64,000 nt of DNA from Torpedo marmorata (lineage: Eukaryota). The notes beneath the pieces were generated by a model. That model saw only the letters and a program-made list of their open reading frames with translations. It was not told the DNA's origin and ran no database searches. The stretch spans positions 51,150,001 to 51,214,000 of the forward strand of contig OZ360229.1 in NCBI GenBank assembly GCA_977017645.1, in the 5' to 3' direction. This document shows positions 2,903 to 64,000 of the stretch, piece by piece (positions within the stretch are counted from its first letter, which is position 1; every line of letters starts with the position of its first letter). Both the position numbers and the translations under genes were made by a program.

Positions 2903-2913
2903 GTTTATACGTT

Positions 2914-5513: not shown

Positions 5514-5523
5514 GTTTATACGT

Positions 5524-26471: not shown

Positions 26472-26582
26472 TTTGAATCAAAATCCATCTTGGTAATTGA
26501 AGGAATCCCAGTTTGGTTTAAGGCATTCCTTTTATAAAGCTAATTAAAAGCTAGTGTGTGTGTAACAAAAAAACCAGCAACA

Positions 26583-28430: not shown

Positions 28431-30483
28431 AGGCACAGATTTGTCACTATCCCGACAGGAGTTAATAGCAAGGCAAAAGGACGATCCTGATCTTGCTGAG
28501 GTGAGGGATAAGGTTCTCTCTGAAGAGGAGATTAAAAAGGTGCCAGTGGGTTATTATGAAAAAGATGGGGTGTTGATGAGAAAGTGAAGACCATGTGATG
28601 TTCCTGCCAATGAAGAATGGGCAGTAGTGCAGCAGGTTGTGATCCCTAAAGTATATAGGGATGCAATAATAACTTTGGCACATAGTATACCCTTAGGTGG
28701 TCATCTTGGGGTGAAGAAAACTATAAGAAAGATAATGAAACAATTTTATTGGCCCAGTTTGAGAAGGGAGGTTGTAAGCGTTTGCCGGGCCTGTTACACT
28801 TGTCAGGTGGTGGGTAAACCTAATCAGGGTCCCCCGAAGGCACCCTTGCAACCTATCCCTGCTTTCAGTGAGCCTTTCTCGAGAGTAATTGTGGACTGTG
28901 TTGGCCCATTGCCCAAAACCAAAGCGGGGAATGAGTATTTGTTAACAATTATGTGTGCAGCCGCCAGATTTCCAGAGGCCATTCCTCTGAGAAACATTAA
29001 AGCAAAGTCAATTGTAAAGGCTATGGTAAAGTTTTTCACCTTGGTAGGTTTGCCAAGGGAAATTCAATCAGATCAGGGCAGTAATTTCATGTCAGGCGTT
29101 TTCCAACAAGTGGTTGATGGACTAGGAGTTAAACAGATTGTATCCTCTGCGTACCATCCAGAAAGTCAAGGGGCCTTGGAGAGGTTCCATTCGACTTTGA
29201 AAACCATGATTAGAACCTATTGTTGTGAGAAGGAAAAGGATTGGGATGAGGGGGTTCATTTGTTGTTATTTGCAGCGAGGGAGTCTGTCCAAGACTCACT
29301 TGATTTTAGTCCATTTGAGTTAGTTTTCGGACATGAGGTGAGAGGTCCTTTAAGATTATTAAAAGAACAGTGGATTAATCATGATGTGCATTTAAATCTG
29401 TTAGATTATGTTTCCAAATTTAAGGATCGATTGCATAGGGCTTGTAAGATGACAAAGGAGAATTTAAAGGCCACTCAACAGAGAATGAAGGTTTGGTATG
29501 ATTGAAAGGCGAAGATGAGAACTTTTAAACCTGGTGAGAACGTATTAGTTCTGTTTCCCATCCATTCAAATCATCTTAGGGCTAGATTTTCAGGACCCTA
29601 TAGAGTTAAGTCAAAAATTAATGATGTCACCTATGTCATAGAAACACCTAATCGCAGACGAGACACACAGGTCTGTCATGTGAACATGATTAAGCCATAT
29701 TTTGAAAAGGTGCCACACAAAGGGACTGAAAATTTACCAGAGGTACTGGTTATTGACAGGGGTAAGGAGGAGACAGATAAAACCAGTTTCAGAGAGGGTC
29801 ATGGAACTGTTAATTCTCGGGGTTATGTAGTAGGACAGGGGAAGTTGGCACCAGTAGAGGCAAAGGTTGTGACTATTTCCGAGTTCCCTGTTCCAACTGG
29901 TAAGAAAACTCTGAGGAGGTTCCTGGGAATGATTGGCTACTACCGCAAGTTCTGTAAAAACTTTGCTGATCTTGCGCTCCCTCTCACAAATTTGCTTTGA
30001 AAGAAAGAAAAATTTGTATGGTCTACAGGTTGTCAGGAAGCATTTGTCAAATTGAAAGCCATGTTATGCCACCAACCTGTGCTTAAGTCACCTAATTTAG
30101 AACAGCCGTTTTCTTTAGTCGTGGATGCTAGCGATGAAGCTGTGGGTGCGGTGCTGTTACAGAAGAAGAACGAAGAGGACATTGACCATCCGGTATCCCA
30201 CTTCTCGAAGAAGTTCAATGATCATCAAAGGAATTATTCAACCATAGAAAAAGAGTTGTTGACTCTTGTGTTGGCTCTACAACACTTTTATGTGTATATC
30301 TGTACAGCTCAAAAACCATTCATAGTGTATACTGACCATAATCCATTGGTTTTTCTTTGTAAAATGAAAAATAAGAATCGACGGTTGTTCAATTGGAGTC
30401 TAATTTTGCAAGAATATAATTTGGTAATCATTCATATAAAAGGGAAAGATAATGTAATTGCTGATTGTCTTTCTAGATGTTAA
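28431..30483 (+). pseudogene. pol remainder of copy A: integrase, RT C-terminal stub, RNase H
   Basis: HSIPLGGHLG..C..C, DCVGPLP, SDQGSNF, YHPESQGALER, FSGPY, VDASD, YSTIEKE, YTDHNPL, NVIADCLSR. Confidence 0.9.
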
Positions 30484-43626: not shown

Positions 43627-45297
43627 TAGATAAGAATAGTGTTTATAGATGTTTATAGTGGGGTTAATTGTTAACAAATTATATGTTTAATTGTCTTTAA
43701 AAATATAAATTTCAATTTTACCCCTTTTGCATTGCGTCTTCTGTCATTGCTGGCTTGAATTTGTAACAAATTGGGGGCTCGTCCGGGATTGAATCAAGCT
43801 CAAGCTTGGTAATTGGAGGAATCCTAGTCTGGTTTAAGACGTTCCTTTTGTAAATCTAATTAAAAGCTACTGTGTGTAACAATAAACCAGCAACAATGGA
43901 TGTGGAAATTTTTTTGTAATCACCCGAACCTGATACTTTAAAAAAGGCTAAAAAGGAACAGTTAGTGGCTATCGCAACAGAGTTGGGCATTGCTTCTGTA
44001 AAACCATCAATGAAAAAGGCAGAGATTGGGAGAGAAATTGACAAATACTATATAAAAGGGAAAAAGGTTGAGGAGAGCGTGTTAGAGCAGTTTCCCAAGG
44101 GTAAACCTTCTGAAAACATACAGTTGGAACTAAAGAAATTGTAATTGTAATTGGAAAAAAAGAGATTAGACTTAGAGAGAGAGGAGACAATTAGGCAATA
44201 TGAGCTGGAAAAGATTAAGTTGGAAAATGAGAGGAGACAAGAAGAGCACCAAGATCATATTCATGGTCCTGTTGAGAGGTTTTTGGCGAGTAGAGAAGTT
44301 AGGTTGGTTTCTCCATTTGAGGAGGCGGAAATAGGTAAGTACTTCCAGCATTTTGAGAAGGTGGCTGTGAAATTAAAATGGCCACAAGACCAAGCTTATT
44401 GTACTCTTACCACGGAGCAAGCTGCTGATTATGAAATGGTGAAAAAGGCTATACTCCAGGCTTATGAGTGAGTTCCAGAGGCTTACAGACAGAAGTTTAG
44501 AAATTTAAAAAGATCAGCAACCCAATCTTACACAGAGTTTGCCTATGAAAAGGTTGTGTGTTTTGACTGGTGGTGCACATCTAAGGCGGAAACAATTATT
44601 AAAATCAATTGAGAGAATTGATAATAATTGAGGAGATAAAAAGGTGTGTTCCTGAGGATATTAAGGCATACTTATATAAAAAGGAGGTGAAAACCTGGCA
44701 TAATTCAGCTAAGTTAGCAGATGAATATGCTTTAACCAACAAGCCTAAGTGGACGTCAGGCAGAATTTTCCAAAAGGGCACTGTGGATAATCCCAAACAA
44801 GTGGAAAGTAAATTTGAAAGTGGTGTTAAGGAAAGAGATGAAGGAAAGTGGAAAATGGAAAACCTTTTGGGTCCCATTTGCCACTACTGTAGGAAGGCTG
44901 GTCATATGCTAGCAAGCTGTCCAATGTTGAAAAAGAAGAGAGAAAAGGATGCAACACCTAATTCTTGTATTCAGAGTGAGAAGAGGCATAACACCCAGGA
45001 AGGAGACAAATTTACTGACAAAGTTAGGGATGTATTTAAACCTTTTGTGACTGATGGTTTTGTTTCAGTTAAGGCAGGATCAAAGCAAGTTCCAATGAAA
45101 ATCTTGTGAGATACTGGAGCTGCTCAATCACTTGTGTTAGATAGTGTCTTGGAATTTTGTGAAGCCACTGACACCGGTGAAATGAATTTAATTAAAGGAA
45201 TTGGGGGTGATGTTGAGTCCATTCCTTTGCACAAAATAGTGTTGAACTCATCCTTGGTGGAAGGACCAGTTATAATAGGAGTGAGATCAGAGTTGCC

Positions 45298-46001
45298 CTG
45301 ACTAATCAAGAACCGAACAATCTCTGCCTTAAATATAACCACTGACCTGGCCTCCTGGCCTCCGCAACGGTGTCATAGTCAGACCTTAAACGTCAAGATG
45401 AAATATGTGTTCCACATGAGATAGACATGCTAGGGTTGCAACTCATCTTAAGCAGTTGCTGAACATGGATGATGGCTTTGAATTGTGATGCAAATTAAAT
45501 TGTGCTTTCTGTGACGTGGCACTGACCATTATGCCCAATGGGCTGCTGCCAATTTTAATAGCATCTGAAGGCCAGGACATATGGTGTGATTTTTTTTTTT
45601 TTTAATTTTAAATATTTTATTTAAATTTTTAAATCATACGACTGCTGGAGGCTGGCTCGAACTGGCTGGAGGAGTACCAGGTATCGGAACCGGGATGCGA
45701 AGGGGTGCCGAGGGCAAACTGACCGTGTTGGAGGTTCGGATCTGGAGCTCAGGTTGCCGATCGTTTGGACTGGACTCTGTGTGGCTGCAGAAGCTCTGGA
45801 GGCAAATCTATGGACACTCGGTGACTCTGGGGGGACTCTCTTTTGCTTCTCTTTCTCTGACTGTAAGGAATGTTAGAGGCGCTTAGGCAATTTCTGCCGG
45901 TGGCGAATCTGTCTGCATTGCAGCAGCCAAAAAGAAATTTCATGGAATATGGCACTGTCTTATTACAATGACAATAAATTGAATCTTGAATCTTGAATCT
46001 T
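45298..46001. mobile_element. Composite insertion in the copy B protease region: unknown/CR1-like piece, tiny minus-strand L1 tail (~45590-45639), Rex1-type 3' UTR with (aatcttg)n tail
   Basis: Gypsy sequence stops at gagttgcc and resumes at gaaggagtctc; tail atgacaataaattgaatcttgaatcttg resembles 40885-40912. Confidence 0.65.
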
Positions 46002-47658
46002 GAAGGAGTCTCACAGTTGCTAGACAAAGACTTAGCTGAGGGTAAAGTAGTTCCTGCAATGCTAATGACCACTAAGCCAGCCATTGATAAGTCAGAGAAG
46101 GACTCTGATATTTATCCGGCATGTGCCATAACCAGGGACATGTCGAAGAAAAATGTCACTGTAGAGAAGGCAGTGGAAAATAAATTGTGGAAAAGAAAAA
46201 GTCGGTGATAATCAAAATCACCTGGAAAAGGTTGAGAAATCTCCTGTGTTAGACCGATACACAAATAAGATACACAAATAAGACACCTAAAGGCACATAT
46301 TTGTCACTATCCCGACAGGAACTAATAGCAAGCCAAAAGGAGGATCCAGATCTTGCTGAGGTGAAGGATAAGGTTCTCTCTGAAGAGGAGATTAAGAAGG
46401 TGCCAGTGGGTTATTATGAAAAAGATGGGGTGTTGATGAGAAAGTGGAGACCATGTGATGTTCCTGCCAGTAAAGAATGGGCATAGTGCAGCACGTTGTG
46501 ATCCCTAAGTATATGGGGACGAAATAGTAACTTTGGCTCATAGCACATCCTTAGGTGGTCACTGTAAAAGCCGTAGGCTCATTAACTTACCGTTGTTGCG
46601 GCGCTCCGGTGTCTCGTCGGGCCTTGGAGCGCTCGCGTAGTTCTGTAGGCCGTCCTCGGAGCGCTCCTAGGCCACGTCGGGCCATGGAGCGCTCGCGTTG
46701 TTCTGTAGGCCGTCGTCGGCCCGTTCTTTGATGTGCGCATGCGCGGGAGTGCCGACGGGCGCATGCGCAGTGTGGAGTGATGTCATTGTGCGCGTTGAGG
46801 TCTGGGAAATGTAGTATGCGCGGGGTAGGATGCGCATTGGTTTTAGGAGCTAAGGGGCATGCGCAAATCAAGCATAGAGAGAGAGAAAAGGAAAGAATAA
46901 GATGTTTGGAGGGTGAGTGAGGTCTCCACATCTTTATTGACCGTTTTATAGCGTTTTATAACTTTTACATCGTTCTACAGTGTTTTCATATCGTTTTGGA
47001 ATTGTTTAAAGAATTATTTAAAGGAACTCATCATACATCGTTTACAAGAACTGTTTATATTAAAGTCATTGAAGATTACTGCAAGTCATGTGTGTAAATA
47101 AAGGTTTTTGAACATATTGGACTTTGTTAGTAAATTGATTAAAACGCGTCAAAGACAAGGACCACACTTAGCCTCCAGGTGACTATTGGTGGATCGAAGT
47201 CACCGTAATATAGTCAATAAAGAGCTGGCTGTTTTGGAACAGAAAATTGAAGGAAAGAAGATAGAAAAAACTCTCTGTGCTTTGGACTGATATAAATGGT
47301 GGCCATTTTGGAGATGCCTCGAGTTGGGGGCAGTTTGTAATCCACTTCCATCTGCCATGAGTAACAGCCAGAGAGGGATTTAAAGCTTCAAATCTTATAA
47401 TAAAGTGTCCTATAAATACGGTGGAGAAACCATTTTTGGAAAATCAGTGATATTAGTGACGGATGTTGTGGTTGAAACTCGTTTGTGGATTGCAGCACAT
47501 TACAGTCATTTGAAATGGTAGGCATAAGTCTGTGGACTCCTTCTGTGTATCTTTAGCAAGTAAGAACACAGATTGGAATTGCTGCCGCTGGTCCATTGGG
47601 GACTGTTGTTTGGCTAGTGTTGTGCATGCTTGAAGGAAAGAGGAACAAGACGAGTAAA

Positions 47659-50589
47659 ATGGCCGCAGCAGCCTCTGATATAACAGCTACTGATATATCA
47701 GCAGCTGACGCAGCAACCGCTGATGTTGCTGTTGAGGACCAACGTATTGAAGACATGAAGGTTGCGGATATTAAAGAAGAATTGAAGCGACTGAAAAAGG
47801 ACATAAGTGGAAATAAAAAGGTTCTTATCGAAAGATTGAAGCTGGCAAAGGATGAAGAGGCAGCTTCATTAGTTGAACAAGAAGATAAAATGGAAATGGC
47901 TGAAATTGTGTCAACAAATGATGAAGAAATTGAATTGGTTGAAGATGCAAAGGATATACAATTCGAATTGGATAAAGAGGTAAGTATGAAGACAACATAT
48001 GAACTGCAGGACGAAATACAAGCAAGTGACAGTGTCTCAAATGCTGAAAGCAGGAGAAGCAAAAGAAGTTCTGGTTCGAGCTCCAGAGTTTCTCGTACTT
48101 CAAGTTCTGCATCGTCACGTACAAAGATTGAAGTTGACTTGGCCGCTCTTTTTGCACAACAAAAAACGCTTAAGGAGAAACATATTTTAGAACAAAAGGA
48201 GGAGCAGATAAAACAAAAGGAGGAGCAGCTAAAGGAGCAGCTAAGACAAAAGGAGGAGCAGCTAAAGGAGCAGCTAAGACAAAATGAGAAACAGCTAAAG
48301 CAGCAGCTAAGACAAAATGAGAAGCAGCTAATGGAGCAGCTAAGACAAGAGAAGGAGCAGCTAAGGCAGATAAAAGAACAGCAGGAGCTGGAAGCAAACA
48401 TTGCTATTGCCAAGGCAAAAAAGAAAGCAATAAAAGGCTCAATGGTATCTGGTGCAAGCAGTAAATCATCTAAATTGTCTGATAATAAAAGGTCATATTT
48501 AAAAAAAGAGTCACAGGAAAAGAAACCAACCAAAAGGATAGATATTTTTGAACCAAGGATACAAAACTTACATATACAAGGACAAACCTTTCAAGAGCAT
48601 ATTGGTATCGAGTCACATGTACCAATAGTAACATCTGAAAGCAAAGCTGCGGCTTGGGTTCGGTCGAACGAAGTAGCTTCTTTGTTATATGAGTCAAGCA
48701 TCAGAAATATGGAAGAAACTACACCAGTGAGGTTTCCAGATACATTGCATGCAACAAGAGACGGTGAACAGAGCAATGTATTGTCATCCAAGGAAAGACA
48801 AAATGAAACTGCAGCATCATTGTTTCAGTTACAGTCTCTCTCTTCTTTACCCAAGAAAGAGATACAAACTTTTGATGGTGATCCACTTCAATATCAATCA
48901 TTTATGAGATCTTTCAAACGCAATATTGAAGATAAATGCCAAGATCGTGATGAATGTCTTTATTATTTGGAAATGTTCACAAAGGGACATCCAAAAGAAC
49001 TGGTAAAGAGTTGTAAACAAATGTCATCAAAAAGAGGATTAGACAAAGCTAAGGCTTTATTGGAACAATATTTTGGCAACAAACATCGAATTGCTTTAGC
49101 TTATATGGATAAAGCTCTTAAATGGACATCAATAAAACAAAATGATATAAAGGCTCTGCAAGAATATACTTTGTTTTTAAGAGGATGTTGTAATGCTATG
49201 GAAGAAATCGATAATATTCGTGAGCTTGAAGTGCATAGTAATATGCGAATCATCTTAGAAAAATTACCTTACAAGTTATGGAATAGATGGAGAAATTTGG
49301 CTTGTGATTTACAAGTAAATTATGGTCGAAAAACTACCTTAAAGGATTTGGTAAATTTTCTTGAACAACAGGTGTACGTTGAAACAGATCCACTATTTGG
49401 AAATACCAGAGATAATTCAATGGGCAAAGATGTAAGTAAGTCTAATTCACAGCCTAGTCCGAAATTGAAAAGGAGTACTTTTGCTACTAATGTGTCAGTT
49501 ATAAGTAAAGAAAAGGACAAAGTAAATAAGGAAAAGGAAAGTTTGCCTAATGGAAAGAGTTGTTTGTTCTGTAAAGGTGGACATGCTTTGGAAATGTGTT
49601 TACGATTGGAAAAGAAGGAACATAAGGAAAAGATCGCTTTCTTAAAGGAAAATGGAATATGTTTTAGCTGTCTGTGTAAAGGGCACATCAGTAAAAACTG
49701 CGAGAAGCGAATTAATTGTAACATATGCAATTTGAAACATCCTAGAATTTTGCATATCCATAACAGAAACAATGAATTGGAAAAGGAGCAAACAGAAACA
49801 AAGGAAACAACAGAAAATAATGTTATAACCTTGGTTCAGACAAGTGGTCTTACCGGGGCCGGTGTGGATAACTGCAAACTTTCAATAGTGCCTGTACAAG
49901 TCAAGGCCAAGAAAGGGGATGCAATAGTAAAAACATATGCATTTCTAGACCCAGGCAGCACTGCATCTTTTTGCACGGAAGCACTAATGAATAAACTTAA
50001 TATTCAAGGAAAAAGATCAAGAATTATGTTAAAAACCATGGGACAAGAAAAGGTTGTTGAAACTAACATTGTTTCAGGCTTAGAGGTTGCTGGATTGGAT
50101 GACAAAAAATTTTGTGATCTTCCAAGTGTATATACTCAGAAGACTATGCCTGTGAATGAAGGAAATATTCCTCATCAAAGGGATATCCATCATTTAGCTT
50201 ATCTGTGGAAGGTTTATTTACCTGAAATTAATTCTGAGATAGAAATGCTGATTGATTCAGATGTGCCAAAGGTTTTGTTACCAAAAGAAGTAATAGAGAG
50301 TAAAAGGAATGGACCTTACGCAATCAATGGACCAATGGAAAGAAATAATGATATTGCTCAGGAACAGGTAGCGATAAATATTAATAAAATTTCAGTTGAG
50401 AAAGTTGAAGAGTTAAGCGAAGAGCAAAAAACCGTGAATAAGAAAATCACTTATGAAGAAAAGAAAACAGATCAATGTGAAAATAAATCAATGGTATTTA
50501 AAACAACATTGAAGGAATTAATTTCGTCAGAAATGGATGAAAGTGAAGTATTAGAAGATGTTGCAAATAATACTATTGATCATGTGTAA
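47659..50589 (+). CDS. BEL/Pao Gag-protease polyprotein with N-terminal SAP domain
   Basis: SAP motif MKVADIKEELKRLKKDISGNKKVLIERL; FDGDPLQY (DUF1759-like); three Cys/His knuckles CLFCKGGH, CFSCLCKGH, CNICNLKH; YAFLDPGST protease; frame fully open. Confidence 0.9.
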   Translation: MAAAASDITATDISAADAATADVAVEDQRIEDMKVADIKEELKRLKKDISGNKKVLIERLKLAKDEEAASLVEQEDKMEMAEIVSTNDEEIELVEDAKDIQFELDKEVSMKTTYELQDEIQASDSVSNAESRRSKRSSGSSSRVSRTSSSASSRTKIEVDLAALFAQQKTLKEKHILEQKEEQIKQKEEQLKEQLRQKEEQLKEQLRQNEKQLKQQLRQNEKQLMEQLRQEKEQLRQIKEQQELEANIAIAKAKKKAIKGSMVSGASSKSSKLSDNKRSYLKKESQEKKPTKRIDIFEPRIQNLHIQGQTFQEHIGIESHVPIVTSESKAAAWVRSNEVASLLYESSIRNMEETTPVRFPDTLHATRDGEQSNVLSSKERQNETAASLFQLQSLSSLPKKEIQTFDGDPLQYQSFMRSFKRNIEDKCQDRDECLYYLEMFTKGHPKELVKSCKQMSSKRGLDKAKALLEQYFGNKHRIALAYMDKALKWTSIKQNDIKALQEYTLFLRGCCNAMEEIDNIRELEVHSNMRIILEKLPYKLWNRWRNLACDLQVNYGRKTTLKDLVNFLEQQVYVETDPLFGNTRDNSMGKDVSKSNSQPSPKLKRSTFATNVSVISKEKDKVNKEKESLPNGKSCLFCKGGHALEMCLRLEKKEHKEKIAFLKENGICFSCLCKGHISKNCEKRINCNICNLKHPRILHIHNRNNELEKEQTETKETTENNVITLVQTSGLTGAGVDNCKLSIVPVQVKAKKGDAIVKTYAFLDPGSTASFCTEALMNKLNIQGKRSRIMLKTMGQEKVVETNIVSGLEVAGLDDKKFCDLPSVYTQKTMPVNEGNIPHQRDIHHLAYLWKVYLPEINSEIEMLIDSDVPKVLLPKEVIESKRNGPYAINGPMERNNDIAQEQVAININKISVEKVEELSEEQKTVNKKITYEEKKTDQCENKSMVFKTTLKELISSEMDESEVLEDVANNTIDHV

Positions 50590-50747
50590 TAGAATCAAAT
50601 ACAGGAATAAAACAAGTGACTGAAAACAAATCTGAATGTAGATTTTGTAGTTCAGAGATTACAACAGACAAAGCTAATGAAGAATTATTGCAATGTGATG
50701 TAAAACTGTAGAACACAGAAAATTGTGCTGATGGAATAAAGAATAAT

Positions 50748-51491
50748 GTGAATGATAATTTAATGCAATTGAATTCAGAGAACAAAATGTTGAAAGGGGA
50801 ATTGGAAATATTAGATAATCAAGAAAACAGTAAACAGAAAGATTTAATTGTAAGTAAAACTCGCAATGTCAGAAAGCGGAAGAAAAGAATAACTGCTGAA
50901 GAAATGAATACAGTTATCGAGGAAAGAGATTCAGCATTATCAAAATGTAAAAAGTTGGAGGAAGAGATTAATGTTTTAAAAGAAAACAAGTTATTGGTTA
51001 ATAACTCAAAACAGTTGACTTTAAAAACCAATCAAGAATGTAAATTGAATGTTCAACAATTAACAATGCAGAAAGAATGTGATATTGCATTGCAAAAATG
51101 TAACAAACAAGATGAAGAAATTAAAAAATTTCAAGTTTGTCGCAACAGGATTGACAATGGAAATATCAATGTATCACATGATATTTTGACTTCGGATCAA
51201 ATTATTAATTTCTCGGAAAGAACTGAGACCGAATTGAAAGTTGTGAAATTGGACTTAGAATTGCAGGAAAGAGCAATAGAAACCAGAGTGGTTAAACAGA
51301 CCTGTTTAAAATCGAAAGGATCAGATAAATATTCAAATTCTAATTCTAAGAGTTTAAATTCTTCACATGAGATGTGGAATAATATAGAAAGGAATAAAGT
51401 GAAACGACATGCTGAAGAAGTGCCTTATGTTAAATTCAAAAGAAAAACTGTATCTATTTTGTCTGAGGAGGATTTGAGGTTTACTGGTTGA
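50748..51491 (+). CDS. Coiled-coil ORF with captured MIPOL1-like (mirror-image polydactyly 1) segments
   Basis: RITAEEMNTVIEERDSALSKCKKLEEEI vs recalled human MIPOL1 RITAEEMSALIEERDAALSKCKRLEQEL, with similarity continuing downstream; start codon uncertain. Confidence 0.75.
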   Translation: MNDNLMQLNSENKMLKGELEILDNQENSKQKDLIVSKTRNVRKRKKRITAEEMNTVIEERDSALSKCKKLEEEINVLKENKLLVNNSKQLTLKTNQECKLNVQQLTMQKECDIALQKCNKQDEEIKKFQVCRNRIDNGNINVSHDILTSDQIINFSERTETELKVVKLDLELQERAIETRVVKQTCLKSKGSDKYSNSNSKSLNSSHEMWNNIERNKVKRHAEEVPYVKFKRKTVSILSEEDLRFTG

Positions 51492-51529
51492 CGTTTTGAC
51501 TCGGATTGTGAAGATGGAAGAACTTTAAA

Positions 51530-51712
51530 GAGACATTGTGATTGTTATGGATGGTTCAACTTCAAGAAATTCCTGGTTACTTGGAAAAGATTATTGAGAC
51601 TTTTCAAGACAAAGAGGACTTGTGCGTCAAGTGCGAATTAAAGCTAAGACTGGTTTTCTAAACAGACCTATTAACAAGGTCTGCCGTTTGTTGGAGACAG
51701 AGGAACTTTGAT
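51530..51712 (+). pseudogene. BEL integrase C-terminal remnant (DUF5641-like)
   Basis: Frameshifted DIVIVMDGSTSRNSWLLGK / IIETFQDKRG / VRQVRIKAKTGFLNRPINKVCRLLE. Confidence 0.8.
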
Positions 51713-53898
51713 AAATATAAACTGACTTTATTTGTTGTTGTATATTTCACAGGTTACAGACTTTTGTTGAATCAGAGTTATGGTAAACTCTAGATTTATG
51801 AAGAAGGAAGAAAGAAGATTTGTATTGTTTTGAATGTTATGGTTATTGTTATTTATAATTTATAGTGCAATTATTATTCAAGACATTACGTCTAATTATA
51901 ATAATTAGGGGCCAGTGTAAGAGCCGTAGGCTCATTAACTTACCGTTGTTGCAGCGCTCCGATGTCTCGTCGGGCCTTGGAGCGCTCGCGTAGTTCTGTA
52001 GGCCGTCCTCGGAGCACTCCTAGGCCACGTCGGGCCATGGAGCGCTCGCGTTGTTCTGTAGGCCGTCGTCGGACCGTTCTTTGATGTGCGCATGCGCGGG
52101 AGTGCCGACGGGCGCATGCGCAGTGTGGAGTGACGTCATTGTGCGCGTTGCGGTCTGGGAAATGTAGTATGCGCGGGGTAGGATGCGCATTGGTTTTAGG
52201 AGCTAAGGGGCATGCGCAAATCAAGCATAGAGAGAGAGAAAAGGAAAGAATAAGATGTTTGGAGGGTGAGTGAGGTCTCCACATCTTTATTGACCGTTTT
52301 ATAGCGTTTTATAACTTTTACATCGTTCTACAGTGTTTTCATATCGTTTTGGAATTGTTTAAAGAATTATTTAAAGGAACTCATCATACATCGTTTACAA
52401 GAACTGTTTATATTAAAGTCATTGAAGATTACTGCAAGTCATGTGTGTAAATAAAGGTTTTTGAACATATTGGACTTTGTTAGTAAATTGATTAAAACGC
52501 GTCAAAGACAAGGACCACACTTAGCCTCCAGGTGACTATAGGTGGATCGAAGTCACCGTAATAATCACTTTTGTGTGAATAAAACGATATAGAAGATAAA
52601 GAAACAATTTTATTGGCCCAGTTTGAGAAGGGAGGTTGTAAGCTTTTGCTGGGCCTGTCACACTTGTCAGGCGGTGGGGAAACCTAATTAGGGTCCCCCG
52701 ATGGCACCCTTGCAACCTATCCCTGCTTTCAGTGAACCTTTCTCGAGAGTGATTGTGGACTGTGTTGGCCCATTGCCCAAAACCAAAGCGGGGAATGAGT
52801 ATTTGTTAACAATTATGTGTGCAGCCACCAGATTTCCATAGGCCATTCCTCTGAGAAACATTAAAGCAAAAGCAATTGTAAAGGCTATGGTAAAGTTTTT
52901 CTCCTTGGTAGGTTTGCCAAGGGAAATTCAATCAGATCAGGGTAGTAATTTCATGTCAGGCATATTCCAACAAGTGGTTGATAGACTGGGAGCTAAACAG
53001 ATTTTATCCTCTGCGTACCATCCAGAAAGTCATGGGGCCTTGGAGAGGTTCTATTCGACTTTGAAGCACTTGATTAGAACCTATTGTTATGAGAAGGAAA
53101 GGATTGGGATGAGGGGGTTCATTTTTTGTTATTTGCAGCAAGGGAGCCTGTCCAAGAATCACTTGGTTTTAGTCCATTCGAGTTAGTTTTCGTACATGAA
53201 GAGAGAGGTCCTTTAAGGTTATTAAAAGAAGAGTGGATTAATAGTGATGTGCATTTAAATCTGTTAGATTATGTTTCCAAATTTAAGGATCGGTTGCATA
53301 AAGCTTATAAGATGGCAAAGGAGACTTCAAAGGCCACTCAACAGAGCATGAAGGTTTGGTATGATCGAAAGGCCAAGATGAGAACTTTTAAACCTGGTGA
53401 GAACGTATTAGTTCTGTTTCCCACACATTCAAATCCTCTTAGGGCTAGATTTTCAGGTCCCCATAGAGTTAAGCCAAAAATTAATGAGGTCACCCATGTT
53501 ATAAAACACCTAATTGCAGATGAGACACACAGGTCTGTCATGTGAATAGGATTAAGCCATATTTTGAACAGGTGCCGCACAAAGAGACTGAACATTTACC
53601 AGAGATGCTGGTTATCGACCAGGGTAAGGAGGAGACAGATAAAACCAGTTTCAGAGAGGGTCATGGGACACAGAAATTGATAAGCCTGAGGTTAGAATAT
53701 TCCATGATTTTACGCCATCTGGAGACCAAGTTGGCTCATCTCAAAACTTCCGAAAAGGAAGAGATGAGTTAATTATTTTTTAAATTTATAAATTTATTTC
53801 CCGATGTGCCTCAGAAAATTTCTATAGCTTATCATGATGTGGATGTAGGAGATACAAGACTGATAAAACAGCAACCATATCGAATAAATGCGGAACAG

Positions 53899-54419
53899 GA
53901 GATATTTGAAAACTTAGTATTAAGATGAAATTAAATATGTATCAAATAGAATTTCTGCGAATTGCTTTAGCTGTTTCAAAGAAATGTATTGCTATTACTT
54001 GGAAATCTGATGTAGATTTAGGGTTAGAAAGATGGCATGCAGAACTTCGTTCATGTGTACCACTTGAAAAAATTACTTACAATTTACGTAATAAATATAA
54101 TTTCTTTTTAAAAATTTGGAGCCCATATATGAAAGCTGTCGGTTTAAGGATTTAAAGATCTCTGGACATCGGATCTACTGGCGAACCTAACCTCCATAAT
54201 AAAATTAGTTTATAGATTTTTTTTTTTAGATTGACATTCTCCTTTCTCTATCTTTTTTTTTTCTCTTTTTATTTTTATTTTATTGGATTAGTAGGGATGG
54301 GAGGGTTATGGAGGGGAGGGTGGGGCGGTGAAAATGTATCACAAGTATTTTGAGAATTTTATATTTTACCTTATGTATTTTGTGATTTAAAACTTTAAAT
54401 AAAATATTTTTTAAAAAAA
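53899..54419 (+). mobile_element. Short 5'-truncated L1 in copy B
   Basis: 17-bp TSD gaataaatgcggaacag at 53882-53898 and 54420-54436; same family as the L1 3' end at 79-600. Confidence 0.93.
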
Positions 54420-57056
54420 GAATAAATGCGGAACAGTGCAAACTGGTAGATCAGCAAATTGACTACATAGTAAAGAACAGTATCATTCGAAAGTCTACTT
54501 TCAACTGGAGTTCTCCTTGTGCTTTAGTAACTAAGCCTGATGAACGGTTAGGTTTTGCACTGATTATAGGAAAGAAAATACTGTGACAAAGACAGATGCT
54601 TATCCTATTCCTAAAATAGACGATTGTATAGACAAGGTGGGGAAGGCCAAATTTCTTACAAAAATTGACTTATTGAAACGGTACTGGTGTGTTCCTTTGA
54701 CAAAAATGTCAAGGGAGATTTCTGCATTCGTAACACCTTTTGGGCTGTATGAGTATAATGTTACGCCTTTTGGGATAAAGAATGCTCCAGGAACATTTCA
54801 GAGAATGATTAATTCAGTAATTCAAGGGTTGAAAAACACAGGTGCATACATTGATGATTTAATTGTAAGTAGTGACACCTGGGAAGAGCATGTCTTTCAG
54901 TTAAAACAATTGTTCGAACGACTGTCAAAAACAAATCTCACAGTTAATTTAAATAAAAGTGAGTTAGGACATGCGACTGTTATTTATCTGGGTTATGTAG
55001 TAGGACAGGGGCAGTTGGCGCCAGTGGAGGCAAAGGTTGTGACTATTTCCGAGTTCCCTGTTCCAACTGGTAAGAAAATTCTGAGGAGGTTCCTGGGAAT
55101 GATTGGCTACTACCGCAAGTTCTGTGAAACTTTGCTGATCTTGCGCTCCCTCTCACAAATTTGCTTAGAAAGGGAGAAAACTTTGTATGGTCGACAGGTT
55201 GTCAGGAAGCATTTGTCAAATTGAAAGCCATTTTATGCCACCATCCTCTGCTTAAGTCACCTGATTTAGAACATTCATTTTCTTTAGCCGTGGATGCCAG
55301 CGATGAAGCTGTGGGTGCGGTGCTGTTACAGAGGAAGAACAAAGAAGACATTGACCATCCAGTATCCTACTTCTCGAAGAAGTTCAATGATCATCAAATG
55401 AATTATTCAACCATAGAAAAAGAGTTGTTTGCTCTTGTGTTGGCTCTACAACACTTTGATGTGTATATCTGTACAGCTCATAAAAAACACTCATAGTGCA
55501 CACTGATCATAATCCATTGGTTTTTCTTGGTAAAATGAAAAATAAGAATCGACGGTTGTTGAATTGGAGTCTAATTTTGCAAGAATATGATTTAATAATA
55601 ACACATATAAAAGGGAAAGATAATGTAATAGCTGATTGTCTTTCTAGATGCTAAACTTTATAAATGAAAATAGATCATATTTTTGTGTTTGTAGATTAAC
55701 ATTGTGGATTTTGTTTATATTGTGACACCTCAATTAATTTCTAAAATTTTGTTCTTGCAGACCAAAATTTTCTTTGTGGGTGGGAGGTGTTATGGACCAT
55801 GACTGACCATATGGACTGTAGACAGTCAGCAGGAAGGATTAAGTCTTTTGGAGTACACACTGGGACCAGGTACTGAAAGATTTAACTTTCCCAGGACTGG
55901 GTGTACCCAGAGAGAGACACACAGAGGGAAAGACAGGCTCTGGAAAGATACTTTGTTGCACTTTTGCAAAAGCAGGGGCAAAATTCTGAAAAAAGCATTC
56001 AGTCTGGAGGTGCAAGAGGCTGGAACAACACAGCCAAATCCAGGCTTGTGTATCCCAGGGGAAAAGGCTGGGAGAATAGCACATGGCCTCCTGTATCAGA
56101 AAAATCCTGATTTAAATCAACTTTCGTGGAGAACAGGCGTGAGATCAGCGAGCCGGCTGTGATATCCAAGTATACGCCTCAATCAAAACTGATTTGGAAT
56201 CGCAATCCTCGTGTACCTACCAAAAGGGAAAGTCATCAGGGAAGAAAAGCAGGTCAAGCATTTGTAAGTTTAAACAGTCATTGTCTCTCTCTCCAACGTT
56301 CATTAAGAAGTCTTTCGTGCCAGCACACAGAGCTGAATTTGGACCCTGAAGATAGAGAGTGATTTTTGTCGACTCTATTTTTGGGACTGACTTATTTTTA
56401 TGACTGACCTCGGGGTTTTGGGGAAGGTTTTCCATTTTTACATGAGGGTTTGGCACAGAATGTAATGGTCTGGACTTTATATATACACACACACACACAC
56501 ATACACAGACACACACACACACACATACACAATCTTTAGTTAAGAATAGTGTTTATAGACGTTTATAATGTAGTTAATTGTTAAGAAATTATATGTTTAA
56601 TTGTCTTTAATAAATATAAATTTCAATTTTACCCCTTTTGCATTGCGTCTTCTATGGTGGCTGGTTTGAATTTTTAACAAATATCCGGTTTGAACTCCAT
56701 CTGCCACTTTTCTATCCTCTTGTAACCTTCGACAACCTTCAGCTCCATCCACAACTTCTCCAACCTTCGTGTCATCCGCAAATTTACTGACACCCCCCCA
56801 CCTTCCGCCTCTTCATCCAGGTCATTTATTTAAAAAAAGAGCAGGGGTCCCAGAACAGATCCTTGTGGCCCTCCATTAGTCACCGACCTCCAGGCAGAAT
56901 ACTTTCCTTCCACTACTACTCTCTGCTTTCTTCCTGCAAGACTATTTTTTATCCACACAGCCAAGGTTCCACTGATCCCATGCCTCATGACTTTCTGGAT
57001 GAGTCTCTTGTGGGGGACCATGTCAAATGCCTTGCTAAAATCCATGTAGACCACAT

Positions 57057-60000
57057 TGTTATGGACCATGACTGACCATTTGGACTGCGGACGGTCAGCA
57101 GGAAGGATGAATGAAGTCTTTTGGAGTACACACAGGGACCTGGTACTGAAAGAGTTAACTTGCCCAGGACTTCTTGTACTTACCGAGAGAGAGGCACCAG
57201 GGGGAGACAAACTGTGGAAAAGATATACTTGGTTGGACTTTTGAAAAAAGGCAGGTGAAGACCTCTGCAGGAAGGCCTTAAAGTTCAGTCATGGAAAACT
57301 GATTCAGTGGCAGTTTGGAGTTGCAAAGGCAGGAGAACCCAGAAAAATCCAGGCTTGTTCATCCCAGAGGAAAAGGTTAGGAGAAGTACACAGAGCCTCT
57401 TGAATCAGCAAAATCCAGGCTTGTGCATCCCAAGGGAAAGGTCTGGGAGAAAAACAAGGCCTTGGTGATTCAGCAAAATCCTGAGTTGAAAGCAACTTTT
57501 GTGAAGAACAGGCGTGAGATCAGCGAGACAGGCGGTGAGATCCAAGTACACGCCTCAATCCAAAACGGATTTGGAGTCGCAATCCTTGTGAAATTACCTG
57601 AAGGGAAAATCATCAGAGAAGAAAAGCAGGCCAAGCATTAGTAAGCATAAACAGTCATTGTCTCTCTCCCCAACGTTCATTAAGAAGTCCTTCTTGCCAG
57701 CACACAGAGCTGAATTTGGACCCTGAACATAGAGAGTGAAATTTTGTGGACTGTATTTTTGGGACGGACTTGTTTTTATGACTGACCTGGGATTTTTGGG
57801 GAAGGTTTTCCATTTTTATGTGAGGGTTGGGAACAGACTGTAATGGTCTGGGCTTTACACACACACACACACACTTTTTAGATAAGAATAGTGTTTATAG
57901 AGGTTTATAGTGGGGTTAATTGTTGTGAAATTATATGTTTAATTGTCTTTAATAAATATAAATTTCAATTTTACCCCTTTTGCATTGCGTCTTCTGTCGT
58001 TGCTGGTTTGAATTTGTTACAAATTGGGGGCTCGTCCGGGATTTGAATCAAGATCGATCTTGGTAATTGAAGGAATCCCAGTCTGGTTTAAGACATTCCT
58101 TTTGTTAAGCTAATTAAAAGCTAGAGTATGTGTAACAAAAAACCAGCAACAATGGATGTAGAAATTTTTTTGAAATCACCTGAACCTGATACTTTAAAAA
58201 AGGCGAAAAATGAACAGTTAGTGGCTATAGCAACCGAGTTGGGCATTGCTTCTGTAAAACCATCAATGAAAAAGGCAGAGATTGGGATAAAAATTCTCAA
58301 ATACTATATAAAAGGAAAAAAGTTTGAGGAGAGCATGTTAGAGCAGTTTCCCAAGGGTAAACCTTCTGAAAACATACAGTTGGAACTAAAGAAATTAGAA
58401 GTGGAACAAAAGAGATTAGACTTGGAGGCAGACAGAGATCAAAAGAGATTAGAGAACTAGGAGAAAATTAGGCAATATAAAATGGAAAAGATAAAGTTGG
58501 AAAATGAGAGGAGACAAGAAGAGCACCAAGGTCAAATTCGTCATCCTGTTGAGAGGTTTTTGGCTAGTAGAGAAGTTAGGTTGGTTCCTCCATTTGAGGA
58601 GGCAGAAATAGATAAGTACTTCCAGCATTTTGAGAAGGTGGCTGTGAAATCAAAATGGCCACAAGACCAATGGTCTCTTATGTTACAAAGTGTAATAAAA
58701 GGAAAAGCTCAGCAAGATTATTTTACTCTTACCACAGAGCAAGCTGTTGATTATGAAACGGTGAAGAAGGCTATACTCCAGGCTTATGAATTAGTTCCAG
58801 AGGCTTATTGACAGAAGTTTAGAAATTTAAAAATATCAGCAAACCAATCTTACAGAGTTTGCCTATGAAAAGGTTGTGTGTTTTGACAGGTGGTGCACAT
58901 CTAAGGCGGTAAAAATGATTACAATCAATTGAGAGAATTGATAATCATTGAGGAGATAAAAAGGTGTGTTTCTGAGGATATTAAGGCATACTGAGATGAA
59001 AAGGATGTGAAAACGTGGCAAAATTCAGCTACGTTAGCAGATGAATATGCTTTAACCCACAAGCCTAAGTGGACGTCAGGAAGAATTTTCCAAAAGGGCA
59101 CTGTGGATAATCCCAAGCAAGTGTAAAGTAAATTTGGAAGTGGTGTTAAGGAAAGGGATGAAGGAAAGTGGAATAGGGAAAACCCTTCGGGTCCCATTTG
59201 CCACTACTGTAGGAAGGCTGATCATATGCTAGCAAGCTGTCCAGTGTTGACAAAGAAGAGAGAAAAGGATGCAACAGCTAATGCTTGTATTCAGAGTGAG
59301 ATGAGGCATAACACCCAGGAAGAAGATAAAGTTACCGACAAGGTTAGGGATGTATTTAAACCTTTTGTGACTGATGGTTTTGTTTCAGTTAAAGCAGGAT
59401 CAAAGTAAGTTCCAGTGAAAATCTTGCGAGATACTGTAGCTGCTCAGTCACTTGTGTTAAATAGTGTCTTGGAATATTGTGAAGCTACTGACACCGGTGA
59501 AATGAATTTAATTAAAGGAATTGGGGGTGATGTTGAGTCCATTCCTTTGCACAAAATAGTGTTGGACTCAGCCTTGGTGGAAGGACCTGTTATAATAGGA
59601 GTGAGATCAGAGTTGCCAGTAGAAGGAGTCTCACTGTTGCTAGGCAATGACTTGGCTGAGGGTAAAGTAGTTCCTGCAGTGTGAATGACCACTAAGCGAG
59701 TCATTGATAAGTCAGAGAAAGACTCTGATATTTATCCGGCATGTGCCATAACCAGGGCCATGTCTAAGAAAAATGTCACTGTAGAGAAGGCAGTGGAAAA
59801 TAAATTGGTGAAAGAAAAAGTCAGTGATAATAAAGAACACCTGGAAAAAGTTGAGCAATCTCCTATGTTACACCAATCGACTGATAAGACACCTAAAGGC
59901 ACAGATTTGTCACTATCCCGACAGGAGCTAATAGCAAGGCAAAAGGACGATTCTGATCTAGCTGAGGTGAGGGATAAGGTTCTCTCTGAAGAGGAGATTA

Positions 60001-63000
60001 AAAAGGTGCCAGTGGGTTATTATGAAAATGATGGAGTGTTGATGAGAAAGTGGAGATCATATGATGTTCCTGCCAATGAAGAATGGGTAGTAGTGCAGCA
60101 TGTAGTGATCCCTAAAGTATATAGGGACGAAATAATAACTTTGGCTCTTAGCACACCCTTAGGTGGTCACCTTGGGGTGAAGAAAACTATAAGGAAGATA
60201 ACGAAACACTTTTATTGGCCCAGTTTGAGAAGGGAGGTTGTAAGCTTTTGCCAGAACTGTCACACTTGTCAGGTGGTGGGTAAATCTAATCAGGGTCCCC
60301 CGGTATATCCCTTGCAAACTATCCCTGCTTTCAGTGAGCCTTTCTCGAGAGTGATTGTGGACTGTGTTGGCCCATTGTCCAAAACCAAAGCGGGGAATGA
60401 GTATTTGTTAACAATTATGTGTGCAGCCACCAGATTTCCAGAGGCCATTCCTCTGAGAAACATTAAAGCAAAAGCAATTGTAAAGGCTATGGTAAAGTTT
60501 TTCACCTTGGCAGGTTTGCCAAGAGAAATTCTATCAGATCAGGGCAGTAATTTCATGTCAGGCGTTTTCCAACAAGTGGTTGATGGACTGGGAGTTCAAC
60601 AGATTGTATCCTCTGCGTACCATCCAGAAAGTCAAGGGGCCTTGGAGAGGTTCCATTCGACTTTGAAAAACATGGTTAGAACCTATTGTTGTGAGAAGGA
60701 AAAGGATTGGGATGAGGGGGTTCATTTGTTGTTATTTGCAGCAAGGGTGTCTGTCCAAGAATCACTTGGTTTTAGTCCATTCAAGTTAGTTTTCGGACAT
60801 GAGGTGAGAGGTCCTTTAAGATTATTAAAAGAACAGTGGATTAATAGTGATGTGCATTTAAATCTGTTAGATTATGTTTCCAAATTTAAGGATCGGTTGC
60901 ATAGGGCTTGTGAGATGGCAAAGGAGAATTTAAAGGCCACTCAACAGAGCATGAAGGTTTGGTATGATCGAAAGGCTAAAATTAAAACTTTTAAACCTGG
61001 TGAGAACGTATTTGTTCTGTTTCCCATCCATTCAAATCCTCTTAGGGCTAGATTTTTAGGACCTATAGAGTTAAGTCAAAGATTAATGAGGTTACCTATG
61101 TCATAGAAATACCTCATCGCAGACAAGACACACAGGTCTGTCATGTGAATATGATTAAGCCATATTTTGAACAGGTGCCGCACAAAGAGACTGAATATTT
61201 ACCAGAGGTGCTGGTTATTGATCAGGGTAAGGAGGAGACAGATAAAACCAGTTTCAGAGAGGGTCATGGGACACAGAAATTGATATGCCCGAGGTTAGAA
61301 AATTCCATGATTTTGCGCAGTCTGGAGACAAAGTTGGCTCATTTGAAAACTTCAGAAAAGGAAGAGATGTGTCAATTATTTTTAAAATTACTCCCAATGT
61401 ATCCTATGATATTTTTATTTGGAGATATTAAAAGAATTAGTACCAAGATGAAATTAAATATGTATCAAATAGAATTTTTGCGAATTGCTTTAGCTGTTTC
61501 TAAGAAATGTATTACTATTACTTGGAAATCTGATGTAGACTGAGGGTTAGAAAGGTGGCATGCAGAGCTTCATTCATGTATACCACTTGAAAAAATTACT
61601 TACAATTTACGTAATAAATATCATTTCTCTTTGAAAACATGGAGCCCATATATAAAAACGGTTGGTTTAAGGATTTGAAGATCTCTGGATATCAGATCTG
61701 ACTGGTGATCCTATTTTCCACAATAAAATTAGTTTATAGTTGTTCTTTTTTTCAGATTGGCATTCTCCTTATATCTTTTTCTTTCCTTATTTTCTATTTT
61801 ATAGATTAGTAGGGCTGGGAGGGTTAGGGTGGGGAGGGAGGCTGGGGGGGAGAAAATATATTACATGTATTTTGATAATTTTGCATTTTATACAGTGTAT
61901 TGTGTGATTTAAAATTTTAAATAAAATATTTAAAAAATATATATATATATTTTTAAGATTTATAAATTTATTTCACGATGTGCCTCAGAAAATTTCCATC
62001 ACTTATCATGATGTCGATGTAGGAAATGCAAGACTGATAAAACAGCATCCCTATCGAATCAATCCGGAAAAGTGCAAACTGGTAGATCAGGAAATTGACT
62101 ACATGGTAAAGAACAATATCATTCGAAAGTCTACTTCCAATTGGAGTTCCCCTTGTGTTCTAGTGCCTAAGCCTGATGGAACGGTTAGGTTTTGCACTGA
62201 TTATGGGAAAGTAAATGCTGTAACAAAGACAGATGCTTATCCTATTCCAAGAATAGATAATTGTATAGACAAGGTGGGGAAGGCCAAATTTCTTACAAAA
62301 ATTGATTTATTGCAAGGGTAGTGGTGTGTTCCTTTGACAAAAAGGGCTAGGGAGATTTCTGCATTCGTAACGCATTTTGGGCTGTATGAGTATAATTTTA
62401 TGCCTTTTGGTATGAAGAATGCTCCAGGAACATTTCAGGGAATGATTAATTCAGTAATTCAAGGGTTAAAAAACACAGGTGCTTACATTGATGATTTAAT
62501 TGTAAGTAGTGACACCTGGGAAGAGCATGTCTTTGAGCTAAAACAATTGTTCGAACGACTGTACAAAGCGAATCTCACAGTTAATTTTAGAAAAAGTGAG
62601 TTTGGACATGCGACTGTTATTTATCTGGGTTGTGTAGTTGGACAGGGGCAGTTGGCGCCAGTAGAGGCAAAGGTTGTGATTACTTCTGAGTTCCCTGTTC
62701 CAACTGGTAATAAAACTCTGAGGGGGTTCCTGGGAATGATTGGCTACTACCGCAAGTTCTGTAAAAACTTTGCTGATCTTGCGCTCCCTCTCACAAATTT
62801 GCTTAGAAAGAGAGAAAAATTTGTATGGTCGACAGGTTGTCAGGAAGCATTTGTCAAATTGAAAGCCATGTTATGCCACCAACCTGTGCTTAAGTCACCT
62901 AATTTAGAACAGCCGTTTTCTTTAGCTGTGGATGTCAGCGATGAAGCTGTAGGCACGCACGGTGCTATAACAGAGGAAGAACGAAGAGGACATTGACCAT

Positions 63001-64000
63001 CCGGTATCCTACTTCTCGAAGAAGTTCAATGATCATCAAATGAATTATTCAACCATAGAAAAAGAGTTGTTAGCTCTTGTGTTGGCTCTACAACACTTTG
63101 ATGTTTATATCTGTACAGCTCAAAAACCACTCATAGTGTATACTGACCATAATCCATTGGTTTTTCTTTGTAAAATGCAAAATAAGAATCGACGGTTGTT
63201 GAATTGAAGTCTAATTTTGCAAGAATATGATTTAGTAATAACACATATAAAAGGGAAATATAATGTGATTGTCTTTCTAGATGCTAAACTTTATAAATGA
63301 AAATAGTTCATATTTTGTGTTTGTGGATGAACATTGTGGGTTTTGTTTATATTGTAACACCTCAATTTCCAAAATTTAGTTCTTGCAGACTAAAATTTTC
63401 TTTGTGGGTGGGAGGTGTTATGGACCATGACTGACCATTTGGACTGCAGACGGCCAACAGGAAAGATGAATTAATATTTTGGAGTACACACTGGGACCTG
63501 GTACTGAAAGAGTTAACTTGCCCAGGACTTCTTGTACTTACCAAGAGAGAGGCACCAGGGGGAGACAAACTGTGGAAAAGATATACTTGGTTGGACTTTT
63601 GAAAAAAATCAGGTGAAGACCTCTGCAGGAAGGCCTTAAAGTTCAGTCATGGAAAACTGAATCAGTGGCAGTTTGGCGTTGCAAAGGCGAGAGAACCCAG
63701 AAAAATCCAGGCTTGTGCATCCCAGAGGAAAAGGTTGGGAGAAGAGCACAGAGCTCTTGAATCAGCAAAATCCAGGCTTGTGCATCCCAAGGGAAAGGTC
63801 TGGGAGAAAAACAAGGCCTTGGTGATTCAGCAAAATCCTGAGTTGAAGGCAACTTTTGTGAAGAACAGGCGTGAGATCAGCGAGACAGGCTGTGAGATCC
63901 AAGTACACGCCTCAATCCAAAACGGATTTGGAGTCACAATCCTTGTGAAACTACCTGAAGGGAAAATCATCAGAGAAGAAAAGCAGGCCAAGCATTCGTA
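57057..64000 (+). mobile_element. Gmr1-type Gypsy copy C (3' LTR runs off the window)
   Basis: 5' LTR 57057-58021; PBS 58025; gag 58152 onward; IN in ORF 59685-61106; RT 61980-62996 (YIDD); RH to ~63285; PPT; 3' LTR from 63416. Confidence 0.93.
61390..61947 (+). mobile_element. Short 5'-truncated L1 in copy C
   Basis: TSD tatttttaa(a/g)att at 61377-61389 and 61948-61960; ORF2 C-terminus PMYPMIFLFGDIKRI... Confidence 0.88.

Follow-up and report, generated by a model that had tools for sequence, protein, structure and literature searches.

Architecture of a BEL/Pao element with host-derived cargo

The stretch of DNA analysed here (the window) comprises 64,000 nt of the genome of Torpedo marmorata (assembly GCA_977017645.1, contig OZ360229.1, positions 51,150,001 to 51,214,000 of the forward strand), and element coordinates are given as window positions. 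On its plus strand lies a BEL/Pao long terminal repeat (LTR) element of 6,001 nt (46563-52563) that lacks about 3.2 kb of reverse transcriptase (RT)-RNase H-integrase sequence and carries 1.1 kb of intronless host sequence instead (Table 1). We regard it as probable that this element represents an abundant non-autonomous BEL/Pao family whose pol was replaced by spliced pieces of BRCA1, MIPOL1 (likely through a circular RNA, circRNA) and Elongin A (ELOA), and which is likely mobilised by an autonomous sister.

A first-pass annotation of the window had reported that no RT, RNase H or integrase core lies between the protease and the integrase tail, and this is so: RT, the Pao RNase H region (PF05380) and the integrase core are all absent, and the 3,190 nt that hold them in the autonomous sister L153 are missing. 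The window element is a non-autonomous BEL/Pao derivative. Its Gag-protease, 93% identical to that of the sister at the nucleotide level, shows a SAP domain (E=1.2e-07) and an Asp_protease_2 match (E=0.02) in Pfam profile searches, and the final ~50 codons of this frame are already BRCA1-derived; the BEL-type Gag mark DUF1759 scored above the cut-off in the young copy L061 and in the sister and was not reported for the window copy. The two LTRs, which begin with TG, differ by 8 mismatches, and the element is nested inside a Gypsy integrase. A 5-bp target duplication is the rule for BEL/Pao elements; the window element has one, and visible 5-bp duplications also flank many other copies with the same cargo.

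The same annotation had described a 247-codon open reading frame (ORF) at 50748-51491. An open frame does exist, with 259 codons from stop to stop, of which the annotated coordinates take in the portion that begins at a GTG. It is not a separate gene: it is what remains of the end of a long frame from Gag-protease into the cargo, which is interrupted in the window copy. The annotation had not noticed that the cargo includes two further genes, that its exons are in back-spliced order and that it is fused in frame to Gag-protease, nor had it noticed the copy number; all of these are described below.

Two features of Gag are shared more widely. The SAP domain at its N-terminus (window 47746-47841) lies above the Pfam cut-off in cargo and autonomous copies alike (L061 and L153), and the Q/E/K-rich tandem repeat (window 48190-48400) differs in unit number between copies, which explains most of the spread in frame length.

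Table 1. Features of the BEL/Pao element, in window positions
Feature	Positions	Strand	Remarks
Left target-site duplication, 5 bp	46558..46562	+	In Gypsy integrase zinc-finger region; empty site in two other Gypsy copies of the window
5' LTR, 648 nt	46563..47210	+	96% identity to LTR of autonomous BEL L153
Gag-protease open frame, 1010 codons stop to stop	47557..50589	+	Order: N-terminal SAP domain, Q/E/K-rich repeat, capsid region, zinc knuckles, aspartic protease
BRCA1-derived cargo	50428..50840	+	One host exon and start of large exon, intron removed; 74% nt identity
Stretch breaking the long frame in the window copy	50575..50711	+	Frameshift near 50581, stop just before 50712
259-codon open frame	50712..51491	+	BRCA1 tail, MIPOL1 part, Elongin A part, then stop
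MIPOL1 exons F (end), G and H, spliced	50841..51145	+	Junctions after 50945 and 51050
Back-splice-order junction	51131..51160	+	After 51145; exon H end to start of upstream exon B, in frame
MIPOL1 exon B (start) and exon C (part)	51146..51290	+	81-nt in-frame deletion spanning B/C junction
Elongin A (ELOA)-derived cargo, two pieces	51290..51502	+	78% and 85% nt identity
BEL integrase tail, 3' untranslated region, polypurine tract	51530..51915	+	Tail is sister's DUF5641 region, out of frame
3' LTR, 648 nt	51916..52563	+	
Right target-site duplication	52564..52568	+	One mismatch to left side

Cargo from three unlinked host genes

The reported capture of MIPOL1 was correct in so far as the match is specific and goes beyond generic coiled-coil similarity (best E=6.8e-32, for a ray protein that is 65% identical across 102 aa). 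MIPOL1, however, contributes only ~450 of ~1,075 host-derived nt, the remainder being BRCA1 and Elongin A, and the cargo begins upstream of the proposed gene, at ~50428. Protein searches for the MIPOL1 part gave 16 matches at E<=0.001, all with the same two Pfam accessions, 14 of them also named MIPOL1 and the best from rays; when the window ORF was compared with Pfam and with PDB sequences, only weak matches to Fer4_11 and vimentin (E=0.03) came back, and the MIPOL1 Pfam families were not reported. The stretch before MIPOL1 is BRCA1 (6 of 6 protein matches, best E=1.9e-75), and the one that follows MIPOL1 comes from Elongin A (E=1e-54 to PDB 8oev chain M; Pfam Elongin_A).

Older copies of the cargo, a class found by best score against MIPOL1, retain more of each gene. 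Their BRCA1 piece contains parts of four exons (two complete exons, the end of a third and 400 nt from the large exon, no introns, 87-100% identity), and their ELOA piece parts of five exons (91-98%). The three host loci, on contigs C61 (BRCA1, a single locus), C40 (MIPOL1, likewise single) and C41 (ELOA), are unlinked and have GT-AG introns; older copies match 4, 6 and 5 of their exons, respectively, at 90-98% and with no intron, giving 12 spliced junctions over the three genes, the back-splice one included. All pieces are in sense orientation and in their own coding frames. The cargo is made up of coiled coil of low complexity and of disordered sequence. The spliced-RNA origin proposed in the first-pass annotation is thereby borne out, as the MIPOL1 match is not confined to one exon and spans junctions at which the host has introns of 0.6 to 83 kb.

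The cassette shows features of LTR-mediated retrocopies: intronless, partial host mRNA replaces internal element sequence, and there is no poly(A). That a processed pseudogene, possibly chimeric, was made by a long interspersed element (LINE) and later taken into BEL, or that the host sequence was inserted late into the window copy only, we consider very unlikely. LINE-driven retrocopies are the vertebrate default (bioRxiv 10.64898/2026.06.26.734816), and the short linkers at two of the joins would suit such a route; yet neither poly(A) nor a target duplication surrounds the cargo, each piece stems from the interior of a coding sequence, the loss of pol coincides with the cargo ends, and the joins are common to all copies examined. 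A late insertion in the window copy alone is refuted by the multi-copy cargo, which, in agreement with the first-pass expectation of a mobile chimera, occurs in very many copies, each with its own target duplication.

An ELOA-like paralogue (G000:C25:175318134-175337565) was considered as a donor and rejected, being only 68-78% identical to the cargo. Three cargo pieces also lie within ~80 kb upstream of the captured ELOA exons themselves (G000:C41:38915401-38940000).

In the cargo, older states survive that are no longer present in the host genes, namely a 9-nt stretch of BRCA1 (host large exon, L204) and two MIPOL1 residues (exons C and H) common to other rays; the capture may therefore predate Torpedo marmorata as a species. 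Among public proteins, the ray BRCA1 isoform P0052 begins (residues 1-185) unlike the RING domain of P0053, with a segment that we take to resemble a retrotransposon Gag and that is possibly an exonised element or a model error. A search for annotated Gag-cargo fusion proteins (729-2321 aa, 7989 candidates scored) found only one unrelated MIPOL1-type bird protein.

MIPOL1 exons in back-splice order

In pairwise protein alignment the MIPOL1 pieces appear in swapped order, residues 449-550 followed by 295-375. We mapped exons B to I of the host gene at GT-AG boundaries in the 327 kb from the large exon to the penultimate exon, and found that 9 of 12 older loci align over 583-589 nt, at 90-96%, to the order F (end), G, H, B, C, D (start), the other three being partial. 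One contiguous alignment of 587 nt to this permuted order reaches 95-96% in older copies. At the join of exon H to exon B, all 17 older copies show 0-2 mismatches in 30 nt, as opposed to 10-12 for the linear A/B junction, 12-14 for H/I and 7-11 for exon-intron controls. The window copy keeps the permuted order at 79% identity.

A circRNA-derived pseudogene is defined by a donor joined exactly to an upstream acceptor (PMC4897178), and the H/B join has this form. Exons B-H total 780 nt, are stop-free through two turns and are bordered by introns of ~50 and ~62 kb; the cargo is limited to exons inside the putative circle, and queries with exon A and with exons I-J matched only the single host locus and not the cargo copies. 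An exonic circ-Mipol1 is recorded in mouse, with exons not stated (PMC9888537). We conclude that the MIPOL1 source was very probably a circular RNA. The first-pass proposal that host mRNA had been transduced thus keeps its core, spliced host RNA, although a circular RNA together with two mRNAs accounts for the source better than one linear mRNA does.

Two other origins of the junction were weighed. It could stem from a linear RNA with repeated exons, made by trans-splicing or from a since-lost tandem duplication of B-H, with all else in our account unchanged. The cargo covers 587 of the 780 nt of the possible circle and reads no exon twice, and non-colinear pseudogene junctions can arise in other ways, as Dong 2016 warns (PMC4897178); we nevertheless think such a source improbable, since no second copy of exon B, C or H occurs in the 327-kb gene interval outside elements, the flanking introns are long and an exonic circle is reported for the mouse gene (PMC9888537). 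Alternatively, RT could have made an extra jump on linear MIPOL1 mRNA and landed at exon ends by chance. Jumps were frequent, to judge from the four other switch points in the cassette, and the terminal AG of exon H is shared with exon A, giving 2 nt of microhomology; but those four switches all fall inside exons, and only the H/B join coincides, exact to the base, with the end of one exon and the start of another. Given some ten boundaries within 2 kb of coding sequence, we estimate the chance of this at the order of 1e-3 or less, and such a jump is the least probable origin that we considered.

Some points tell against a circular source and the template switching that would have captured it. 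Microhomology is weak at the BRCA1-MIPOL1 switch (~4 of 6 nt), and the BEL-BRCA1 and MIPOL1-ELOA joins hold short linkers of unknown origin. The window copy itself has 12 mismatches in 30 nt at the H/B join, which is clear only through the long alignment and the older copies, and both the circle and the element transcript are deduced from DNA sequence only.

In one older copy (G000:C42:9563886-9564965) the MIPOL1 piece is repeated at 405-nt spacing, with the H/B junction present at least twice; because the repeat units skip exons C-E, an internal duplication is more likely here than a second turn of the circle. The host MIPOL1 gene (G000:C40:64323001-64649800) carries four cargo copies in its own introns. 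A 3-nt gap shared with one ray MIPOL1 protein had raised cross-species transfer as a candidate, which we dropped, the gap being probably due to independent slippage.

An autonomous sister and exchange of backbones

With DUF5641 as the query, 23,994 first-look candidates were obtained, and some of these lie in frames of ~2,040 codons. All ten long-ORF BEL loci that were fetched align to the window element on either side of the cargo, up to element position 3865 and again from 4968 (L162 only from 2331), and across these two blocks (1-3865 and 4968-6001) the window element is 92-93% identical to the autonomous sister. LTR identity to the ten loci ranges from 79 to 97%. One autonomous locus that was scanned has RT, the Pao RNase H region, integrase and DUF5641. 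The autonomous BEL helper postulated in the first-pass annotation thus has a candidate with the same LTR.

Within loci, the LTR pairs are 98-100% identical in nine of the ten autonomous elements (the tenth has no pair in the stretch), 97-100% in 17 of 17 young cargo copies and in the window copy, and 82-88% in older cargo copies (credible pair in 4 of 8). Backbone identity to present helpers runs in parallel, at 92-95% for young and 72-76% for older cargo copies. In a Gag-protease tree of 33 of 36 rows (L122, L167 and L169 were left out for short matches; L063, L067 and L072 were not among the rows), young cargo and autonomous copies interleave with five label changes, at least three of them forced by well supported branches, and a single clade is rejected (p-AU 0.0001). 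This interleaving indicates that the two kinds recombine and that the cassette keeps moving onto helper backbones. The non-autonomous family is likely mobilised by its autonomous sister, which shares the LTR and was active over the same period. Two copies have unusual structures: L062 is an apparent tandem array with a shared LTR, and L067 has a 1,567-codon frame with a rearranged 5' half.

Copy number

In 50 tiles of 10 kb, placed at preset round positions on large contigs of the 6.2-Gb genome, we counted six cargo copies and one pol region of the same family, which corresponds to ~75,000 cargo copies genome-wide (95% range 27,000-162,000). When the tiles are combined with 624 kb around four host loci, which contain five full copies, the estimate is ~61,000 (30,000-109,000). 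Of the 500,000 tile bases, 25,412 (5.1%) match the element at >=80%, with helper and solo LTRs counted in. Direct queries gave 3,054 (DNA query), 32,155 (97-aa query) and 57,438 (whole MIPOL1) hits, which are first-look candidates and not counts. The older class with long ELOA sequence is rare (136 domain matches among 178 candidates, host exons among them), and intermediate copies with 82-86% identity to the host also exist. X1 contig depth reaches millions on the cargo, compared with 6-18 on a single-copy BRCA1 exon; this fits a very large family and was not used as a copy number. In run X6, guessed to be RNA, an intronic repeat and the cargo were covered at nearly the ratio found in the DNA run, and X6 was set aside as a source on expression. 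Contigs of other organisms (coded B, C and E) cover 24-30 of 30 bins with no piece spanning the cassette, which suggests that the family may also occur there.

Selection on the open frame

BEL elements use one long frame, and the cargo extends it: in 52 of the 150 best matches the cargo lies in a frame of at least 1,200 codons, and in 19 of 20 fetched copies a single frame of 1,268-1,383 codons runs from Gag to the cargo stop, the remaining one being longer. For Gag-protease, the dN/dS ratio (omega) of old copies against the helper is 0.41-0.45 in 4 of 4 comparisons (likelihood ratio 26-43), whereas for the cargo against the host genes it is 0.90-1.02 in 3 of 3 copies, over 356-358 codons and 0.7 substitutions per codon (codon model with transition bias). 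The cargo has drifted towards AT, with 26% for each of the changes C to T and G to A, and under this drift 11.2 stops are expected in it and none is seen; none of 20,000 simulations remained stop-free. Eight deletions separate young from old copies, and all eight are multiples of three relative to L169, six relative to L119. As dN/dS is close to 1 without any stop having arisen, it seems that the open frame is selected more than the encoded protein.

A stop directly after the protease would leave a long untranslated tail exposed to nonsense-mediated decay (NMD), or would cost the element its cis-packaging. Avoidance of either is, by inference, the reason that we prefer for the open frame.

The cargo tail may instead have been kept as a protein, a BRCA1-MIPOL1-ELOA peptide, set free from Gag-protease or borne by it, that aids particle assembly or disturbs a host pathway and so drove the success of the family. 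The long frames among the best matches, the absence of any fixed stop over a long branch, an omega below 1 among young copies (mostly in the BRCA1 part) and the six-to-one excess of cargo over same-family pol copies in the preset tiles would all agree with this. We still hold a protein role to be unlikely: omega against the host is about 1 over a long distance, the eight deletions took out large parts of the cargo, among them the Pfam domain of Elongin A and half of exons B-C, and Pfam scans recognise no domain in what is left.

Two observations pull against selection on the frame alone. Out-of-frame gaps do occur, 2 of 8 against L119 and 1 of 11 against L169; in the latter, the three extra gaps, one of them out of frame, all lie in its own damaged stretch. 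Among 18 young copies the unascertained cargo has an omega of 0.70 (BRCA1 part 0.58, rest 0.82), with 0.44 for the backbone; long frames had been the criterion for picking these copies, the codon alignments comprise 18 of 19 copies (all but L072), and the F-G-H part was dropped as ascertained by the query. These values leave room for mild protein constraint on the cargo, which would be weakly kept at most. Lower Nei-Gojobori estimates (0.55-0.68 against the host, 0.37 among young copies) were set aside, as the method ignores transition and AT bias and the F-G-H part had been the selecting query.

Proposed origin and relation to known systems

We propose that, in a particle of an ancestral BEL element, RT would have left the integrase tail for three host RNAs packaged alongside and then returned, in one or several rounds, one of these RNAs being read across a back-splice junction. 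The resulting chimera would have kept LTRs, Gag and protease, and so its own coat, while borrowing RT and integrase. Co-packaging with the helper would keep swapping the backbone around the cargo, leaving the cassette matched to an evolving helper, and meanwhile the cargo would drift ~21-26% from the host genes and shrink by in-frame deletions. Selection would mainly maintain an open frame to near the 3' LTR, through protection from NMD or through Gag packaging its own RNA, and not the cargo amino acids.

Several components of this scenario have precedents, which we compare on the basis of selected portions of the cited works. LTR elements capture host RNA by template switching, with a two-gene Pao case in Drosophila and secondary non-autonomous spread (Tan 2016, PMC5131818). 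The Torpedo family resembles these cases in that partial, intronless host fragments from multiple parent genes lie between discontinuous halves of an LTR element, and differs from them in its three genes, back-splice junction, tens of thousands of copies, long life and maintained frame; the cases described are young and of low copy number. Maize Bs1, present in 1-5 copies (via PMC5131818), is likewise a defective LTR element with sequence from three host genes that are unlinked, and it has shared switch points and a hybrid open frame; in contrast to this plant element, the Torpedo family is a vertebrate BEL/Pao with ~10,000 times more copies, a piece in circRNA order and a still-recombining helper. 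In mouse, 33 high-confidence LTR-associated circRFWD2 pseudogenes are known, whose mechanism was termed mysterious (Dong 2016, PMC4897178). They share with the Torpedo cassette a non-colinear junction fixed in DNA, the lack of poly(A), LTR association and multiple copies, but here the circle-order piece sits inside a complete LTR element, in frame with Gag-protease, and the helper is identified. Wheat has co-evolving autonomous and non-autonomous LTR families, RLC_Angela and Wilma/Sabrina/WHAM (PMC9744471), in which the non-autonomous members bear Gag, reach high copy number and keep pace with their helpers through exchange of sequence; the portions drawn on here describe no captured host-gene cassette in them, unlike the Torpedo family.

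The first-pass statement that no such family had been described holds for this family, although its kind is known from the cases above. We found no description of this family, or of a three-gene cargo combined with a circRNA piece, this scale and frame-only selection, in the literature searched; Repbase, Dfam and subscription journals lay outside the search, and a consensus may exist there. Known, then, are LTR capture of host mRNA, three-gene cargo and circRNA pseudogenes, and new with respect to the literature searched are their combination, the scale and the frame-only selection.

In cartilaginous fishes, MIPOL1 is the top retrocopy parent, which has been read as formation bias and selective filtering under LINE activity (bioRxiv 10.64898/2026.06.26.734816); the main text of that preprint contains no occurrence of a BEL carrier, exon scrambling, BRCA1 or ELOA. 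The Torpedo BEL family likely accounts for the MIPOL1 excess in this survey. Retrocopy counts should accordingly be read with caution as signs of selection on host function.

In its broadest form, which we put only slightly above even, our interpretation is that a vertebrate BEL lineage carries, as a pol-alternative, a heritable cassette in which a host circRNA junction is set between fragments of BRCA1 and of Elongin A. This cassette swaps backbones, outnumbers its helper several-fold, makes up ~5% of the 6.2-Gb genome and is held open by selection for translation alone (or gives rise to a Gag-fused host-mimic peptide). If true, no larger amplification of a circRNA-derived sequence would be known, and the family would serve as a long-running natural experiment that separates open-frame selection from protein selection. 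It would tie circRNA retrotransposition, unexplained in Dong 2016, to a concrete carrier and helper. The copies form a dated series that runs from 95% down to 76% identity with the host, and they show that gene capture by an LTR element can reach the scale of a major part of a vertebrate genome. With fragments of BRCA1, MIPOL1 and ELOA present in tens of thousands, small RNAs that silence transposons could, we infer, also be directed at the three host genes; such a cost may explain the fast drift of the cargo from the host sequence.

Surroundings of the element

The window contains three copies of a Gypsy family in which the integrase precedes RT (43900-55650, 26500-30450 and 58100-63300), with a weak SCAN match in Gag (E=0.007); we take this gene order to be that of Gmr1-like elements. 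The Gypsy copy that hosts the BEL element also holds a LINE-like 3' fragment (53898-54426), which is inverted relative to the copies at 76-633 and 3032-3514.
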